Notes: generated by a model from the sequence alone, not told the origin. A DNA stretch of 39,062 nt from Candidatus Omnitrophota bacterium (GCA_013202745.1 JABMRJ010000056.1:1-39062); one strand, 5' to 3'; positions 8,855 through 23,017 are shown, numbered from the stretch's first letter. Made by a program: numbers and translations.

Positions 8855-8923
8855 ATATTGTACCGGGTACAATCTCAATCTCGTACCTGGTACAAGCTCA
8901 ATATTGCACCCGGTACAAGCTAT
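8855..8923. repeat. Three tandem 23-bp units, each containing the palindrome TTGTACC-N-GGTACAA
   Basis: ATATTGTACCGGGTACAATCTCA (8855-8877), ATCTCGTACCTGGTACAAGCTCA (8878-8900) and ATATTGCACCCGGTACAAGCTAT (8901-8923). Copy 1 holds a perfect 17-bp odd palindrome, ATTGTACC-G-GGTACAAT (8857-8873). Confidence 0.9.
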
Positions 8924-16879: not shown

Positions 16880-19126
16880 TTAGTTTGATGTTGGAATCTT
16901 CCTCTGTACGCCGGCCGTAGGGCCGCGATAGCTCGCGCTGAACATCTTAAATGGCAATTCCGGGAAGGCCTTTATGCGGAAGGTGATCCAGAATCTATGT
17001 TCCAGATCCACCTCCTGCTCTTCTGTCTCTTTTAACTGATAATTGAATTCGACAAGCCAGCAATGGAGATCCCGTTCTATACCATAAGTCTGCTCTTCAA
17101 GCACAAACTTATTATCATCGGAATCATTCTTTATCCTATGGTATGACTTGAGCTTCCATCTGGGGCTCAAGACATAAAAGGCATCACTGGTAAATTGGCT
17201 GCTTGAACTCTCCTGTTCATCCTCTTCAAACCTGAAGCCCCAGGCAAGGCCCCAGTGGCGCTCCATTCCCGCTATAAGATCTGCATTTATGCTATTGAGC
17301 CTATTCTCTTTCAGGTCATAATGTGAATCCGAATGGATCTCAAGCCAGGAGTACGGCCGCAGTATGAGCCCTGTGCGTATGTCTTTTATGCTCTTATTAT
17401 CCCTGGCGTGGAGCAAGAGCCCGGTGGAGGTTGAGAATCTTACGAGGTCGTGAACCTCCATATCGTCGCCGCGCTTGGTCTGCAGGGTATTTACAAGTGT
17501 GAAGTCCACCCCATTATGGCCCTCGATAGCATCTACACTATCAAACTGCTTAATGTCTTCCGTCTTCATATTGGGGGTGGGCGTATAATAATAGTCTATC
17601 AGTGGATTGATGACATGTCTCAACTTATTTATATCGAGCGCTAATGCATCTGTCTCGACATCAAATACCCTAAAAAATTTGGTGGAGAACCGCGTACCAA
17701 AGGTATAGACATGCCTCAGCTCATTCTCATTCTCCATATCATCCTCGGAGTACCACGTCTCCCTAAGGCCGATATAAGGATTACATGTCAAAAACCCGAA
17801 CTGTTTGCTAAGATGTGAAATCTCTTGTTCTGTATCAAACCTGTTTGCCTTTAGCTTTGGTTCTGTATCAGTATCCTTCATACGTCGAAACTTTCTCTGG
17901 AGCATTGCAAAGGATGTAGTGGATGTGTAATAAAAATCTGTCTCCCTTACCCTCTGGCTCGTTATATTCATCTTTAGCTCCGGGAGTTTTTCAACGACTT
18001 CATAGAAATTGTGGAGGCGGTACTTTGTCAAAAAGCTGAGATTATATCCGGGCCGAGTCTTTATTACAGAAAAGTAATTCTGTGGTTCGGATTCCTTGTC
18101 AAACTCATCCAGATAATAATAATCTTTCACAAAGAGGGAGTCGCTTACTTTATGGAACTCGCCTGTAGCAAGCGTATCCTGATCTATCTGCCACTTATGC
18201 CTCAGCTGCACCCTCCACCTCTTGTTGCCTACGCCCCTGCCCAGCTCTGATTCTTCAGGAGTAATCGAATGATTTTCGTCTGTATAGTAAAAACGGAGTA
18301 AACCTTTCCCAAAATAGCCTAACTTATATTTATAGTCGAAGCCCTCGGCAAAGCCCTTCTTCTCTCTCCAGTCAAGCCTTACATAACCGCGTGACCATTC
18401 GTGAAAATAGTATCTCCATGCGGTTAGGACATAAGCTCCCCATCTTGAGTTTCTTCCGGCCAGTATCGTTACGCGCGGCCTTTTGTCATTGAGCCAGTGG
18501 ACATAATAAGGAAAGTAGAACATAGGAAAGTCGCCTATAAAGATGATGAGGTGCCGGGCCTCGATCCTGTCATTGATAAATAATTTTATACGGCGCGCCT
18601 GTATCCTGTAATGCGGATGCGGCAGGTCGCACGTTGTAATAAAACCTCTCTCTATAGCGTACTCCCCATCTGCCACCTTTGAGCCTACCTCGCCTTCTCC
18701 ATACCACGGATTGCTTCGTACCTCCGCTTCTATGATAGTGCCTCTCTCTGTATCAAAGTTATAATTGACCTTTTCGCCCCTTATTATATTCCCGTGCTCG
18801 TAGAGCACGACATTGCCTTCGGCAAAGGCCTCCTTCGTCTCCATATGCACGACGATCTTGTCGCATGTCATCTTTACATCTTTATAGGTAATGACGACAT
18901 TCTTTACGCCTACAACCTTCTTCTCTTCATATAGATATTCGACCCTGTCTCCATCTACTATAATGGGTTCCTTATCTGAACCTGCCTCCGCTTGCGCGGA
19001 ATCGGAATCGAACATATCCTGCGCATATCCGATAACGGGATAAAAGACAAAGGGGATTATAATGCAGAAGAATGCTATTAAAATGAATAGTTTTTTTAAT
19101 TTATTATATATTTCCATCTCTCTCAA
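16880..19126 (-). CDS. lptD: LPS-assembly outer-membrane protein LptD
   Basis: N-terminal signal/TM, OstA-like jellyroll (AEGNVVL, GEKVNYNF), FITTCD.PHPHY motif, beta-barrel-like C-terminus with RDLHCW. The start codon is uncertain. Confidence 0.85.
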   Translation of the reverse strand: MREMEIYNKLKKLFILIAFFCIIIPFVFYPVIGYAQDMFDSDSAQAEAGSDKEPIIVDGDRVEYLYEEKKVVGVKNVVITYKDVKMTCDKIVVHMETKEAFAEGNVVLYEHGNIIRGEKVNYNFDTERGTIIEAEVRSNPWYGEGEVGSKVADGEYAIERGFITTCDLPHPHYRIQARRIKLFINDRIEARHLIIFIGDFPMFYFPYYVHWLNDKRPRVTILAGRNSRWGAYVLTAWRYYFHEWSRGYVRLDWREKKGFAEGFDYKYKLGYFGKGLLRFYYTDENHSITPEESELGRGVGNKRWRVQLRHKWQIDQDTLATGEFHKVSDSLFVKDYYYLDEFDKESEPQNYFSVIKTRPGYNLSFLTKYRLHNFYEVVEKLPELKMNITSQRVRETDFYYTSTTSFAMLQRKFRRMKDTDTEPKLKANRFDTEQEISHLSKQFGFLTCNPYIGLRETWYSEDDMENENELRHVYTFGTRFSTKFFRVFDVETDALALDINKLRHVINPLIDYYYTPTPNMKTEDIKQFDSVDAIEGHNGVDFTLVNTLQTKRGDDMEVHDLVRFSTSTGLLLHARDNKSIKDIRTGLILRPYSWLEIHSDSHYDLKENRLNSINADLIAGMERHWGLAWGFRFEEDEQESSSSQFTSDAFYVLSPRWKLKSYHRIKNDSDDNKFVLEEQTYGIERDLHCWLVEFNYQLKETEEQEVDLEHRFWITFRIKAFPELPFKMFSASYRGPTAGVQRKIPTSN

Positions 19127-20078
19127 GTGAAACGAGTACGGCGGCGCCTACAAGCCCGGCATCCCGGCCCAGACTCGCCCTTACGATCTTTACATGCCTG
19201 CGCTGTATATTCATGGCGCGCTTCTTTACAGTCTCTTTTATAGGATTTAGAATAAATCTGCCTGCCTGCGCAACCCCGCCGCCTATGATTACCTTATCAG
19301 GGCTTAAGAGGTTTATGACTCCGGATAACATAACACCTATACGGAATCCTATCTCCTTCCAGAAGACGACAGCAAACTTATCCCTTCTCTTTGCAGCCTT
19401 ATATAATAACTCAGGGGTAATCCGCGAAACATTTCCCCCTGCCAGTCTCTTTATTATAGTCTTTTCTCCGCGGCCTATTCTGCGCTTCACTTCTTTTATA
19501 ATATAGCTGTTTCCTACATATGATTCGATGCAGGCGATGCCGCCGCAATTACACCTGGGGCCGTCTACATTTATCGGTATATGTCCTATCTCGCCAGCCG
19601 AAGAGAGGTGTCCTCTGTGCAATCTTCCGTTTATGATAATGCCTCCGCCTACACCCGTACCAAGTGTAATACATACTAAGTTCTTCTTACCCTTTCCAGC
19701 GCCCTTATGCAGCTCTGCGAGTGTCATAACATTGACATCGTTATCGATATATAATGGGATCTTTATCCGCTTTGCGAATAATCTCTTTATATTGACTCCG
19801 TTAAATCCTTTTATATTAGTTAAAGAATATATGATCCCCTTTTTGATATCCATCTGGCCCGGTATGCCCATACCTATACCTATGACATCCCTTCGGGTCA
19901 ATCCGCGCTTCTTTAAGAGGTTATTAACGGAATTGCATACTGCGGAAACAAATCTCTGAGGAGTCTTAGACGTCCTGGTAGGAAAAGAGGCCCTATCGAG
20001 AATTGCGAATCTCTTATTTATAAGAGCCACTCTCGTATTGGTACCACCCAAATCTATTCCAATAAAATACTTTTTCAT
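19104..20078 (-). CDS. ROK family sugar kinase (glucokinase-like)
   Basis: GIDLGGTN, NDVN, TLGTGVGGG, GEIGH, CNCGGIACIE zinc motif and AGLVGAA; no N-terminal HTH. Confidence 0.9.
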   Translation of the reverse strand: MKKYFIGIDLGGTNTRVALINKRFAILDRASFPTRTSKTPQRFVSAVCNSVNNLLKKRGLTRRDVIGIGMGIPGQMDIKKGIIYSLTNIKGFNGVNIKRLFAKRIKIPLYIDNDVNVMTLAELHKGAGKGKKNLVCITLGTGVGGGIIINGRLHRGHLSSAGEIGHIPINVDGPRCNCGGIACIESYVGNSYIIKEVKRRIGRGEKTIIKRLAGGNVSRITPELLYKAAKRRDKFAVVFWKEIGFRIGVMLSGVINLLSPDKVIIGGGVAQAGRFILNPIKETVKKRAMNIQRRHVKIVRASLGRDAGLVGAAVLVSLERDGNI

Positions 20079-20104
20079 ATTTATAATATTATTATGTTAC
20101 ATGT

Positions 20105-20133
20105 ATTATATAAGAGCAAATAATGATTGTCAA
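20105..20133 (-). promoter_or_regulatory. Consensus sigma70 promoter for ROK-lptD
   Basis: Minus strand TTGACA (20133-20128), 17 bp, TATAAT (20110-20105): a perfect consensus. Confidence 0.85.
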
Positions 20134-20160
20134 TAGTTATAAGTGCGGGTATAGAGGCAT

Positions 20161-20362
20161 GCGGTGCTTTGCATGTTGGCTGAGCACATGGGGCTATTCG
20201 AGCGGGGCCTTTTTTTGGCGGAGCGGGCATGGTTTTTTGCTATAGATTACATACAGGCAAAAAGAGCGGAGCCAAAAAACGGAGCGAGATTTTCCACGCT
20301 GGGGAAAATCGAGCGCTCCCGCGAGAATAGCCCCATGGGCTCAGCACGGAGGCAAGTACCGC
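20161..20362 (+). ncRNA. Highly structured ~200-nt intergenic element (candidate ncRNA or non-autonomous palindromic mobile repeat)
   Basis: GCTGAGCACATGGGGCTATTC (20179-20199) pairs 20/21 with 20325-20345, the ends GCGGTGCTT/AAGTACCGC pair, and there are two internal hairpins. The structure is clear; its identity as an RNA is inferred. Confidence 0.5.
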
Positions 20363-20369
20363 GGGCCCC

Positions 20370-21602
20370 TTACCCAGCATACACGCATACCCTATTACGA
20401 CCGGCATTCTTTGCGGCATAGAGCGCTTGGTCCGAATTCTCTATCAACTCCTCTATCTCTCCTGCATTGGATGGGAAGGACGCTATACCTATGCTGATCG
20501 TCACCTCAGTAGATTCGTCATAGGCCTTGAATCTATACTTTTGTACTATCTCCCTTATCCTCTCTGCGACCAGATGCGCTTCATCCCTGCCGGTCTCCGG
20601 AAGAATAACACAGAATTCCTCGCCCCCGAATCTACCTACAAGGTCGACTTCTCTTGTATTCTGCTTCAGTATATATACAATATCTTTCAAGACGACATCG
20701 CCAACAAGGTGGCCGTATGTATCGTTGTATTTTTTGAAATGGTCTATATCTATCATGAGAAATGAGAGGTCGTAATTGTGACGCCTCGACCTTTCAAACT
20801 CCTCTCCAAGACGTTCCATCATGTGCCTCTTGGCAAATGCCTTTGTAAGACCGTCCGTTATGGCCATCTCCTCGACCTTTTCATAAAGGACTATCCTCCT
20901 CATCTCCAATGCAAACTGGGAAGCAAGGATTGAAAACTTTTCATAATCACTGGCCGGCAAGTCTTCTATAGCCAGGATGCCCATAAGCTGATCTCCTATT
21001 ACTATAGGGATTGCCATGAATGTCTGGCAATTTTCAGGGAGGAGTTCTGCATAAGGATTCTGCTCCCACTTGCTCTTTACAATCTGTATACGCCTTATCT
21101 CATCCCTTAGGATATTAGATATTTTATTGTCGTGTTCGCATAGCGGACGCGTAGCAATCTCCAGCTTTGGTATAATACCCTTTGCCTTTAACGTACTATC
21201 CTGCAGCCCTGTGGTTTCAATGACCATATTTATCGAAGAGGTCTCATCCTCTCCTTTTATAAGGATAAGCCGCGCCTTCTTAAAGAGAAATGTCATATAA
21301 AGATATTCGGATAACATCTTGAATATATCAAAAAATTTCAAGCCTTTTGACATCTCCTTGACAATTTCATAAAGGCTCGCCTGCTCTGCCAGTTTTTCAT
21401 TAAACTTAAGGTGTGCATCATAGATAGATGCCTCCTCCGATACAAATTCATTAAAACGCCTCTCATCAGAGAGGTAGGCACCGGTAAGGCCGTTTCTGTA
21501 CTCTTTAAAGGATCCCTTGATCTTGGAGAATACAAGAGGAACCAGGATAGATGCCAAAAGCATCAGCGCTATTATATGGAGATAGTTCATCAGCTCATGC
21601 AT
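20370..21602 (-). CDS. Membrane-anchored GAF + GGDEF diguanylate cyclase (I-site present)
   Basis: One N-terminal TM, GAF-like middle, DGLT, DIDHFKKYNDTYGHLVGD and REVDLVGRFGGEEF. Confidence 0.9.
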   Translation of the reverse strand: MHELMNYLHIIALMLLASILVPLVFSKIKGSFKEYRNGLTGAYLSDERRFNEFVSEEASIYDAHLKFNEKLAEQASLYEIVKEMSKGLKFFDIFKMLSEYLYMTFLFKKARLILIKGEDETSSINMVIETTGLQDSTLKAKGIIPKLEIATRPLCEHDNKISNILRDEIRRIQIVKSKWEQNPYAELLPENCQTFMAIPIVIGDQLMGILAIEDLPASDYEKFSILASQFALEMRRIVLYEKVEEMAITDGLTKAFAKRHMMERLGEEFERSRRHNYDLSFLMIDIDHFKKYNDTYGHLVGDVVLKDIVYILKQNTREVDLVGRFGGEEFCVILPETGRDEAHLVAERIREIVQKYRFKAYDESTEVTISIGIASFPSNAGEIEELIENSDQALYAAKNAGRNRVCVYAG

Positions 21603-23017
21603 ACCTTATTTCTTCCCTCTTTCTTTGCGCGGTAGAGATTAGAGTCAGCGATCTTGAGTAGATCTTCCTTGCCCATGGCATTATCGGATAAGGTTGAGAC
21701 GCCTATAGAAACTGTAACGTTGGTCTTTATCCTCCTGATGTAGAAAGGCTCTTCCTCAACCTTCCGCCTTATTTTCTGTGCCATCTTTCCTGCAGCCTTA
21801 TTATCTTCACTAAAGAGTATAACAGCAAATTCTTCGCCGCCGTAACGTGCCACTATATCACCTTTACCTACTATTGAGACAAAGAGCCCTGCCAGATGTT
21901 TCAATAATATATCCCCGGCTATATGTCCGTATTTATCATTGTAGCCCTTAAAATGGTCTATATCTATCATAAGGATCGACAAAGGATGTCTCTGCTTCTG
22001 GGCCCTCTTGATCTCTGATTCAAGGCGCTCGGTAAAATACCTATGGACAAAGAGCTGTGTCAGGCCATCTTTAATGGCGAGTTCTGTAGTCCTTTGATAT
22101 AGGATATTATTGTGCAGGGCTACGGCTCCCAGATCGCCTATAATATCCAGGAGTCTGAGGTCATCCGGATTATAGGCATCTATCTTCTCGCTATCGAGCC
22201 TGAGGAGCCCTATGACCTTGTTATGGCTCACCATTGGGACCGCTATCAGAGATTTAAAGCTTATATCTTCCAGCGATATGTCGTCATGAGAAAACCTGAA
22301 GTCCTTAGCCGCATCCAATATGATCAGCGGCTGGTTCTGCCGGAGTACCCATTTATCGAAGATGTCGCCTTTCTTAGATTTGATCTTTGCAAAATGAGGG
22401 GGCTGCTTTGCATGCTTCAATATAAGTTCCTGGCGTTCTTCGTCCACAAGATAGATGAGGGCCCTCGTAGACTTTCCCACTATATCAAGAGACTTCTCTG
22501 CGAGAAAACCTATTACCTTTTCAATAGAAAATATGTCGCTTAAGTTTTCTGCTACACTCTTAAGTTCTCCGTATCTATGCAGCTTCAACTCTAAGGCCTC
22601 TATCTGCGCGCGGTCCATCTCTATCTTTTTAGAGAGGGTATTCATCTCCTCGCCCACCTTCTCTCTCTTTAATAAATATTCTGTTTGGAACTTCATAAAT
22701 ATGTTAAGGTATTTAAAAGAGTACGCTGTCGTAATAGAAAAAGGCAGGAGGTGCAGATAATAGAGCTGATTGCCGGTTATCAGGGATATGGCGAAAATGA
22801 GTATTGCGCAAAATATCAGGACTACAATACCGCCTATCCAGCCGAAGGCGAACCAACCTGAGGCGATAACAGCATTGAATACGAGCAAATAGGAGGTTAA
22901 CTGGACAGAAAATGGAGTATCTTTATTTAAGTCTAACTGAAGTAGAAAGTAGGTAAGAAACGTTATGAGGATCAAACAAACAGCGCCTAAGAATACCCTG
23001 TCTCTGATAAGATTCAT
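21590..23017 (-). CDS. Multi-TM GAF + GGDEF diguanylate cyclase (no RxxD I-site)
   Basis: 3-4 N-terminal TM helices, coiled coil, GAF (SLIAVPM..VIGLL), DIDHFKGYNDKYGHIAGD and GKGDIVARYGGEEF. Confidence 0.9.
   Translation of the reverse strand: MNLIRDRVFLGAVCLILITFLTYFLLQLDLNKDTPFSVQLTSYLLVFNAVIASGWFAFGWIGGIVVLIFCAILIFAISLITGNQLYYLHLLPFSITTAYSFKYLNIFMKFQTEYLLKREKVGEEMNTLSKKIEMDRAQIEALELKLHRYGELKSVAENLSDIFSIEKVIGFLAEKSLDIVGKSTRALIYLVDEERQELILKHAKQPPHFAKIKSKKGDIFDKWVLRQNQPLIILDAAKDFRFSHDDISLEDISFKSLIAVPMVSHNKVIGLLRLDSEKIDAYNPDDLRLLDIIGDLGAVALHNNILYQRTTELAIKDGLTQLFVHRYFTERLESEIKRAQKQRHPLSILMIDIDHFKGYNDKYGHIAGDILLKHLAGLFVSIVGKGDIVARYGGEEFAVILFSEDNKAAGKMAQKIRRKVEEEPFYIRRIKTNVTVSIGVSTLSDNAMGKEDLLKIADSNLYRAKKEGRNKVCMS

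Follow-up and report, generated by a model that had tools for sequence, protein, structure and literature searches.

A probably mobile, multi-copy hairpin family with a predicted pseudoknotted core in Candidatus Omnitrophota and other bacterial phyla

Hairpin repeats scattered through bacterial genomes are a common sight. As a rule they are confined to one lineage, and constraint acts on their ends only or on a simple stem. Among the closest described systems, miniature inverted-repeat transposable elements (MITEs) have conserved ends and a free interior, and for REPINs, which are built from repetitive extragenic palindromic (REP) sequences, compensatory differences between the arms of copies have been reported. 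The element considered here lies in a 39,062-nt stretch of DNA from Candidatus Omnitrophota bacterium (GCA_013202745.1 JABMRJ010000056.1:1-39062), the whole of which is called the window below. A preliminary description, made from the sequence alone, had marked positions 20161-20362 as a Y-shaped structured element folding on the strand opposite all genes, and had proposed a novel non-coding RNA or a non-autonomous mobile hairpin acting as single-stranded DNA or RNA. This joint proposal is supported by the lack of an Rfam match, by dispersed copies, by an empty orthologous site, and by covariation. The feature is probably one copy of a non-coding, multi-copy interspersed family, which is mobile, non-autonomous, and has a core conserved as a folded strand. 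Comparison of the copies indicates that the family multiplies within genomes, is patchily distributed over several phyla, and keeps its fold by compensatory changes.

The spacer that contains the element has a length of 291 nt, from the TAA stop (20370-20372) of a minus-strand GGDEF gene to the ATG (20078) of a minus-strand ROK-family gene. The pairings initially assigned to the outer stem (two helices and GCGGG/CCCGC), arm 1 (a 9-bp helix, GGA/GGA, GC/GC, and TTTTTGC/GCAAAAA), and arm 2 are all found at their positions (Table 1), as is the outer symmetry between GGGTA (20147-20151) and TACCC (20371-20375), which overlaps the TAA stop of the minus-strand open reading frame (ORF). Folding of both strands, a check that had been suggested, places both far beyond shuffled sequences. 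The minimum free energy (MFE) of the + strand is −122.6 kcal/mol, compared with −82.6 ± 4.6 kcal/mol for shuffles (z −8.7, 0 of 200 dinucleotide shuffles as good), and the − strand has −110.5 kcal/mol (z −9.1 in its own shuffle comparison), the + strand being 12 kcal/mol more stable. The modelled Y shape is thus real, far beyond chance, and could be formed by either strand.

No hallmarks of SRP, tmRNA, or RNase P had been seen in the element. No Rfam family matches it, including 6S, SRP, tmRNA, RNase P, ribozymes, and omega/HEARO RNAs. A scan of 19800-20800 against Rfam 15 with E values up to 10 reports only HgcG (E 6.5) at 20024-20114, which is outside the element and represents noise, and ten other family members show no match on the element with E up to 1. 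On either strand of 19950-20500 there are 0 intrinsic (Rho-independent) terminators, searched as a GC-rich hairpin followed by a T run. A coding reading is rejected as well: core lengths modulo 3 are evenly spread (23, 27, and 34) and hence do not come in threes, an 85-aa ORF overlapping the element has no Pfam match, and stop-free frames are common by chance in 130-nt GC-rich DNA. The element is undescribed in the full-text literature searched, which includes PMC10066038 and bioRxiv 10.64898/2026.10.21.760802, the supplements of which might list it.

Relatives match only the interior of the element, approximately 20197-20327. A seed alignment of 19 copies from 9 genomes, with a structure consisting of helices P1 and P2, a three-part arm 1 (P3), and arm 2 (P4), is 81% paired, with 32 of 46 pairs changed on both sides, and was used to build covariance model R1. 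In alignment A3, which contains 49 R1 matches from 31 genomes realigned to the model, 88.9% of cells are paired and all 46 pairs are changed on both sides; none of 500 shuffles is as high, and slid controls have at most 50% paired. Alignment A5, with 84 sequences aligned to the model, 30 of them from the GGCCA-type loci mentioned below, reaches 89.8% of cells paired, and both partners have changed in 47 of its 49 pairs. The covariation signal is uniform over all helices of the modelled structure. This outcome of the suggested covariation check, strong in each helix and joined by a covarying tertiary pair, points to a folded single strand under selection. Unpaired bases conserved in at least 90% of A3 form AGCGGGCAnGG on the 5' side and GAGCGA on the 3' side of the arm-1 internal loop, GAGC at the base of arm 2, and CCnCGCnGGGG in the arm-2 loop; in total, about 25 bases of the core are near-invariant.

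The tertiary contact is a predicted 3-bp loop-to-loop pseudoknot, in which the arm-2 loop (20298-20300) pairs with the arm-1 internal loop (20226-20228), since two scans both show the pair covarying. In the first, rare copies that have C instead of the third G of the arm-1 loop also have G instead of the last C of the arm-2 CGC. Among 184 distinct sequences, 174 carry GGG/CGC and 4 carry GGC/CGG, with 0 one-sided changes at the 20227/20299 pair; the remaining 6 differ at neighbouring positions or are spurious. The second, independent scan searches 401 genomes of the class for the core pattern, with the internal loop required to read GGCCA and any base accepted at the loop position. It has matches in 39 genomes, and among the 107 matches listed 100 are readable, with CGG in 99 and CGC in 1, compared with 0 matches in the same 401 genomes for the reversed-pattern control. 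According to A5, the middle pair is G-C in 49 sequences, C-G in 31, and something else in 1. As for the flanking pairs, one is invariant (C-G in all 81), and the other, the third pair, is G-U in 57 of 81, G-C in 13, and something else in 11; its G-U would read A-C on the opposite strand. The pseudoknot sites stand at similar heights over the junction: the one in arm 2 is ~12 pairs above it and the one in arm 1 ~14 pair-equivalents, which would fit a geometry with arms 1 and 2 side by side. A kink-turn reading of the arm-1 loop was considered and is disfavoured, because that motif requires A directly behind the bulge and the element has G there.

Regarding the choice of strand, the preliminary description had relied on purine-purine mismatches in the symmetric loops of the + strand, and this argument holds family-wide: over all modelled pairs on that strand, there are 356 G-A or A-G mismatches versus 62 C-T or T-C, and 179 G-U versus 106 A-C. 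Because both asymmetries keep their direction whatever the orientation class of the flanking genes, the asymmetry is a property of the element itself and favours the + strand. A wobble pattern driven by host transcription is rejected, since G-U outnumbers A-C whatever the context class. Two of the three G-A loops originally listed are conserved in the family, namely GA/GA below P2 (G in 75 and A in 82 of 84 A5 sequences) and GA/GA in arm 1, which is GGA/GGA in the window (G in 82 and A in 82 of 84). The third, in arm 2, is not conserved, many relatives in A5 having Watson-Crick pairs instead. Patescibacteria copies have an extra G-A tandem layer outside P1.

According to BLASTN searches in the genome and its relatives, which had also been suggested as a check, there are many dispersed copies, in line with a mobile element rather than a single-copy gene. 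The genome that holds the window (G000) is a 1.67-Mb metagenome-assembled genome (MAG) of 195 contigs. It has a 163-nt copy with 86% identity on contig C78, pieces at four contig ends (C61, C42, C158, and near the starts of C62 and C29), and right-half pieces on C72 and C149, and R1 reports 3 matches in it. Depth data from four DNA runs, with contigs from one study that is possibly the genome's own source, show a 5- to 10-fold excess over the flanks at 20176-20343; contigs break at 20204-20233, and none of these metagenome contigs has a joint that skips the element. Of 151 genomes sampled from the class, 73 have an R1 match, and so have 66 of 151 sampled from the phylum with other classes included. 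Positive genomes have 1 to 22 or more copies each, counts that are lower bounds as no more than 22 candidates per genome were scored.

The distribution extends over several phyla. An exact pattern of three conserved motifs, applied to one genome per prokaryote species, gives at least 124 stretches, and for 80 loci taken from these R1 confirms 79 at full length. By submitter title, the 80 loci belong to Omnitrophota (14), Aminicenantes/Acidobacteriota (14), Patescibacteria lineages (10), Auribacterota (2), and WOR-3, Margulisiibacteriota, Makaraimicrobium, Desulfaltia, and Krumholzibacteriales (1 each), with generic or automatic labels for 35. Whole-genome copy numbers are 69 in an Aminicenantes genome (a 4.0-Mb assembly with megabase contigs), 28 in Auribacterota, 21 in WOR-3, 6 in Taylorbacteria (a 0.6-Mb genome), and 2 in Liptonbacteria, and five further genomes have 11, 19, 4, 4, and 14. 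For the copies spread over megabase contigs, mis-binning is ruled out as an explanation. A viral origin is rejected: among 6 pattern stretches in viral contigs R1 confirms 0, and they are chance matches in GC-rich coding DNA. Some copies are arranged in face-to-face pairs, with their 5' ends opposed, 38-122 nt apart, and each with its own closing stem (loci L131, L140, L087, L150, L057, L244, and L224); the 4-Mb Aminicenantes genome has five such pairs (G481, contigs C5 and C6).

At the window locus, insertion is shown by a genome of the same family (G002), in which the orthologous GGDEF gene (64% identity over 409 of 410 aa) and ROK gene (60%) are only 66 nt apart, with no element between them. 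This empty orthologous site identifies the window copy as inserted DNA of ~239 nt, which came to lie between the stop codon of GGDEF and the −35 box of ROK. Approximately this length (roughly 20134-20372) separates the ROK promoter from the last GGDEF sense codon, and the element end now supplies the GGDEF TAA stop. The ROK promoter is intact in the window (20133-20105, 12 of 12 consensus positions), and the same promoter is present at the empty site. Among the ROK loci of 11 relatives, 0 have an R1 match. The empty site (L312, C50, 1425-1460) is also an example of extreme gene packing, as the GGDEF stop lies within the −35 hexamer of the ROK promoter; in the window's genome the insertion separated the two. 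A distant MAG labelled Omnitrophota (L085, 1347-1960) has GGDEF and ROK genes with 45% and 41% identity on either side of a Y element that is oriented like the genes. The spacer there is 610 nt long and also holds other hairpin repeats, and the arrangement represents either an independent insertion or an inversion.

Evidence for mobility elsewhere comes mainly from genome G024, where copies form a ~235-bp unit with shared termini and 13 left-end matches. For 10 of its copies the contig contains both ends, and direct repeats abut the same termini exactly over 9 bp in 3 of these and over 8 bp in 4; the remaining 3 match at 7 of 9 positions only, which is no better than shuffles. Terminal inverted repeats are present in the sense that the whole element is a hairpin, and the G024 copies have defined termini. 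In four G024 copies most or part of the core is missing, with the termini and the repeats beside them retained. The deletion junction is the same in two of these four, which come from different loci, so that either a core-less derivative transposed or the same deletion between repeated GAGCG motifs occurred twice. A search for an autonomous parent element with the same ends returns short copies for all 13 G024 end matches. In G484 and G043, the outer-stem arms vary among copies of one genome with complementarity kept. A composite transposon was considered for two inverted copies 1.7 kb apart in a single-cell contig (L135/L136) and rejected, the arrangement being an inverted duplication of the contig. 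That duplication is ~1.8 kb long, carries the same protein on both strands, and is most likely an amplification chimera.

These results fit an element whose ~135-nt core is a three-way junction of P2, P3, and P4, locked by the 3-bp pseudoknot, punctuated by tandem G-A motifs in GAGC/GCGA contexts, and enclosed by a long closing stem of variable sequence. The element would be mobilised in trans, by machinery that possibly differs among lineages, and in one lineage the mobilising enzyme would make 8-9-bp staggered cuts. The core may act as a functional module in the form of a folded single strand, most likely RNA made by transcription of the spacer. Its probable role is to bind a conserved partner, or else to provide a structure for processing or stability. 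It is less likely to be a transposition signal, because the core-deleted G024 copies keep intact ends and target duplications. RNA is favoured since the constraint, which includes invariant loops, the junction, the pseudoknot, and one-strand tolerance of G-U and G-A, is typical of folded RNAs, and since copies lie in transcribed spacers and core-less derivatives occur in G024. A stronger version, in which the core represents an RNA class with a function of its own (as a self-cleaving ribozyme or as a scaffold for a conserved RNA-binding protein) that is new and rides on mobile elements through at least five mostly uncultivated phyla with the pseudoknotted junction as its active part, is put forward tentatively, as the balance of probability is against it.

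Several observations weigh against a mobile family with an RNA-like core. Copies within a genome are related and the alignments are fitted to the model, so the cell counts overstate the number of independent events. The excess of G-U over A-C is only ~1.7-fold, well below that of typical functional RNAs, and it disappears when only the A3 core helices are counted (8/6 in P2, 3/3 in the distal P3 stem, and 3/8 in P4), and the middle pair of the pseudoknot, being symmetric, is uninformative on strand. As for mobility, the window copy has no target duplication, such duplications are found in one genome only (none by eye in G363, G156, and G484), and a mobilising enzyme was not found, with no transposase among 136 neighbouring ORFs. 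Among sequencing runs searched for 18500-22500, four DNA runs and no RNA run contain the locus. The cross-phylum labels are the submitters' own, and at least one automatic label is wrong: L131, titled 'uncultured Planctomycetia', is identical in sequence to contig C175 of G236 (L252), a genome of the window's own class, and because of this the automatic taxon labels of that assembly series are unreliable. Finally, flanking genes, called with a crude ORF caller, lie on the opposite strand on both sides in 52 of 101 copies, and therefore co-transcription with the neighbours would mostly yield the complement of the modelled strand. The 101 copies comprise 39 from the Omnitrophota set (both neighbours opposite 25, same 6, divergent 7, and convergent 1) and 62 from the cross-phylum set (27, 13, 16, and 6, respectively).

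Among the rival explanations, a family of independently transcribed small RNA genes, encoding a trans-acting or ribonucleoprotein RNA with a promoter at each 5' end and multiplied by gene amplification, survives best, and is nevertheless judged unlikely. With its near-invariant unpaired bases, three-way junction, and pseudoknot, the core is conserved to a degree familiar from structured RNAs, and in 75 of the 101 copies the 5' end faces a gene start, i.e., a divergent promoter region. In 13 of 13 G024 copies and in the window copy, the 5' end is, by eye, 13-16 bp from a near-palindromic −35 box, which in G024 belongs to an outward promoter, and the element tip has a −10-like hexamer at 17-19 bp from it. 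However, the promoter scan of the window reports no + strand promoter into the element, the candidate seen by eye being under the scan threshold. Adjacency to promoters is also not general: targeting of promoter edges fits G024 and the window copy, but is rejected as a rule, with 26 sites on the 5' side versus 21 on the 3' side among 123 copies. Moreover, there is no terminator after the element, some copies fill spacers of essential operons such as atp with 7-16 nt left on each side, and core-deleted and truncated copies persist.

Still less credit goes to a cis-acting catalytic or processing RNA, namely a new ribozyme or a nuclease-recognition or exonuclease-blocking structure that cuts or protects host transcripts. 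Two junction arms held by a contact between a loop and an internal loop, with invariant bases concentrated in the internal loop, would suit such a role, as would a multi-copy family tied to mobile DNA with copies in transcribed spacers, operons included. The 52 copies with both neighbours opposite, versus 19 with both the same, could mean that the active strand is avoided in messenger RNAs; the 19, however, are in sense orientation between co-directional genes. In addition, no Rfam ribozyme matches, and the resemblance to small self-cleaving ribozymes is one of general architecture. As for a partner of the core, no recurrent protein family is found among the 136 flanking ORFs, which are assorted housekeeping genes.

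A fold at the DNA level would be a cruciform or single-stranded DNA that is recognised, as with REP/REPIN or attC sequences, by the replication machinery, a recombinase, or a transposase of the HUH or tyrosine kind. Of the readings in which the fold has a function, this is the most doubtful. The element is a long palindrome with compensatory outer-arm differences among the G484 and G043 copies, and the core helices contain G-U and A-C in nearly equal numbers. Of the 151 genomes sampled from the class, 118 have Y1 (IS200/RAYT-type) transposase genes, the highest number of matches in one genome being 13. However, a Y1/RAYT partner is rejected: element-rich G484 (28 copies) has 0 Y1 candidates, G095 (13 copies) has none, and in G000 it is a different repeat family that borders the Y1 genes. 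A replication-strand bias is rejected as well, as orientations are mixed along the megabase contigs of G481, and the complete chromosome of G486 has 8 plus and 2 minus copies with no switch (by eye, with the origin unmapped). The conserved G-A tandems and the pseudoknot G-U favour one strand in any context, and there are no integron-like arrays, the neighbours being housekeeping genes. Finally, a decayed or chance inverted repeat with no function, which could draw on both strands folding about equally well against shuffles, is practically eliminated: homologous copies number in the hundreds over several phyla, and compensatory changes affect each of the helices as well as the tertiary pair.

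Table 1. Positions of the element, its structural parts, and neighbouring features in the window.
Feature	Position	Strand	Basis or remark
Whole hairpin element, GGGTA ... TACCC	20147..20375	+	MFE fold
Inserted DNA relative to G002 empty site	about 20134-20372, ~239 nt	+	66 nt between the orthologous GGDEF and ROK genes, element absent
Outermost stem, 5' arm (pairs 20354-20362)	20161..20169	+	Fold; similar piece at G000 C148:248-268
Outermost stem, 3' arm	20354..20362	+	Fold
P1 5' arm (pairs 20325-20345)	20179..20199	+	Sequence varies among genomes, pairing kept; 7/7 modelled P1 pairs covary
P1 3' arm	20325..20345	+	Partner of 20179-20199
Conserved core	20192..20331	+	Match to covariance model R1, 131.5 bits
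GA of conserved tandem G-A loop between P1 and P2	20200..20201, partner GA 20323-20324	+	Alignment
P2 5' arm (pairs 20317-20322)	20202..20207	+	6/6 pairs covary, 94% of cells paired
P2 3' arm	20317..20322	+	Partner of 20202-20207
Arm 1 (P3)	20208..20282	+	Helices 20208-09/20281-82, 20211-19/20271-79, 20234-40/20257-63; variable end loop 20241-56
Arm 1 GGA/GGA	20220-22 vs 20268-70	+	Followed by GC 20223-24 paired with GC 20266-67
Arm 1 internal loop	GGGCATGG 20225-32 vs GA 20264-65	+	Motifs at least 90% conserved in A3
Junction A, arm 1 to arm 2	20283	+	Invariant, 84/84 in A5
Arm 2 (P4), 20284-95/20303-14	20284..20314	+	12/12 pairs covary
Arm-2 7-nt loop ACGCTGG	20296-20302	+	CCnCGCnGGGG in at least 90% of A3
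Predicted pseudoknot, arm-1 internal-loop side GGC	20226..20228	+	Antiparallel to 20298-20300 (GCT)
Predicted pseudoknot, arm-2 loop side GCT	20298..20300	+	Covariation
GGDEF diguanylate cyclase gene, TAA within element end	20370..21602	-	Pfam GGDEF E 1.2e-48; G002 ortholog 64% identity
Sigma-70-type promoter of ROK gene	20105..20133	-	12/12 hexamer positions, 17-nt spacer; 13 nt from element 5' end
ROK-family gene, downstream	19104..20078	-	Pfam ROK E 2e-67

Other repeats and genes near the copies were recorded as well. The Y1 genes are unusually common for such small genomes and are mostly ORFs of 160-340 aa. G000 has a classical REP-RAYT system, in which Y1_Tnp genes (5 matches; loci at C124:2200-3500, C58, and C23) are flanked in inverted orientation by short palindromic repeats of two types, TTGTACCGGGTGCAA and GGGACAGSTTG, the cores of which occur 22 and 15 times in the genome, respectively. 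Three tandem 23-nt units at 8855-8923 of the window have the same palindromic core. This repeat family is distinct from the Y element and is often located beside its copies. Mosaics in which right-half Y fragments are fused to a module of the CCACAGGCCTTATATGAAGG type are found in G000 at C62:100-260, C29:100-260, C72:11800-11960, C149:6150-6480, and C148:100-420; several of them end 0-15 nt upstream of a strong sigma-70-like promoter, as judged by eye. In G075 (L203-L211), a conserved module of ~40 nt (CAGTCACGCGC...GTGTGGTA) is located about 60-110 nt 5' of all 7 aligned copies, at a variable distance from the copy, and in three copies an inverted module is present further upstream. As for the genes next to the element, 20370-23017 holds tandem GGDEF genes of 410 aa and 475 aa (the latter with a GAF domain), one's stop overlapping the other's start. 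Their GGDEF domains share a 78-nt stretch that is 74% alike (repeat D3), at which the depth in the metagenome contigs peaks (20680-20763).

The family is unusual for an interspersed repeat in its branched core, near-invariant bases, and covarying tertiary pair, a degree of constraint that is usual for ribozymes, riboswitches, and ribonucleoprotein RNAs. It is unusual also in having tens of copies per genome under labels that include Omnitrophota, Patescibacteria, Aminicenantes, Auribacterota, WOR-3, and others. This combination points to an undescribed RNA function carried on mobile DNA or to an undescribed structure-dependent mobilisation system. Both possibilities are directly testable, since it is now established which strand folds, how it folds, and that 20227/20299 is the key pair. 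From a practical point of view, the element breaks short-read assemblies at contig ends, rewrites gene ends (here a stop codon), and lies at promoter edges in two genomes, and can thus confound the annotation of these small genomes.

By analogy with known systems, the element would work most like REP/REPIN, ERIC, or Correia-type repeats, from all of which it differs in having a branched, apparently pseudoknotted interior conserved across phyla. Similarly to REP, BIME, and REPIN sequences, copies are numerous non-coding intergenic hairpins, present within operons and often just behind stop codons, which form mosaics with other repeat modules and have arms that are complementary within a copy and differ between copies. 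In contrast to REP, the Y unit is 4 to 8 times longer and branched, with the predicted pseudoknot and a core conserved across phyla. It does not behave as a REPIN-RAYT system, being independent of the Y1 transposase, and the REP-RAYT system of G000 uses a different repeat.

Agreement with MITEs is partial. The bacterial representatives that fold as RNA (ERIC/IRU in enterobacteria, Correia in Neisseria, and RUP/BOX in pneumococci) resemble the element in a length of 120-250 bp, inverted symmetry over the whole length, and insertion into transcribed spacers in both orientations. Like a MITE, the element is short, non-coding, and dispersed in many copies, with a presence/absence polymorphism at an orthologous site, and in G024 it has terminal inverted repeats, internally deleted derivatives, and, in 7 of 10 copies, exact 8-9-bp target duplications. 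Unlike in MITEs, however, the interior is conserved and the closing stem is variable, there is a covarying tertiary contact, several phyla are involved, and no parent insertion sequence is found.

With orphan structured RNA motifs, i.e., Rfam families of unknown function, the element shares a definition by covariation and conserved loops only and an occurrence in uncultivated lineages; it differs from them in its absence from Rfam 15, high copy number, insertion polymorphism, and lack of a consistent gene association. Hammerhead and twister-sister ribozymes also have a three-way junction, arms tied over a long range, invariant internal-loop bases, and a link to mobile DNA. The likeness is architectural only, with no sequence or model match and with the Y junction almost fully paired. 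With integron attC sites, the element has in common an imperfect palindrome with strand asymmetry and a proposed action in the form of a folded single strand. Only one tyrosine recombinase and no arrays are found among the 136 neighbouring ORFs, and in contrast to attC the Y element has no cassette arrays or neighbouring integrase, is much larger, and possesses a conserved branched core.

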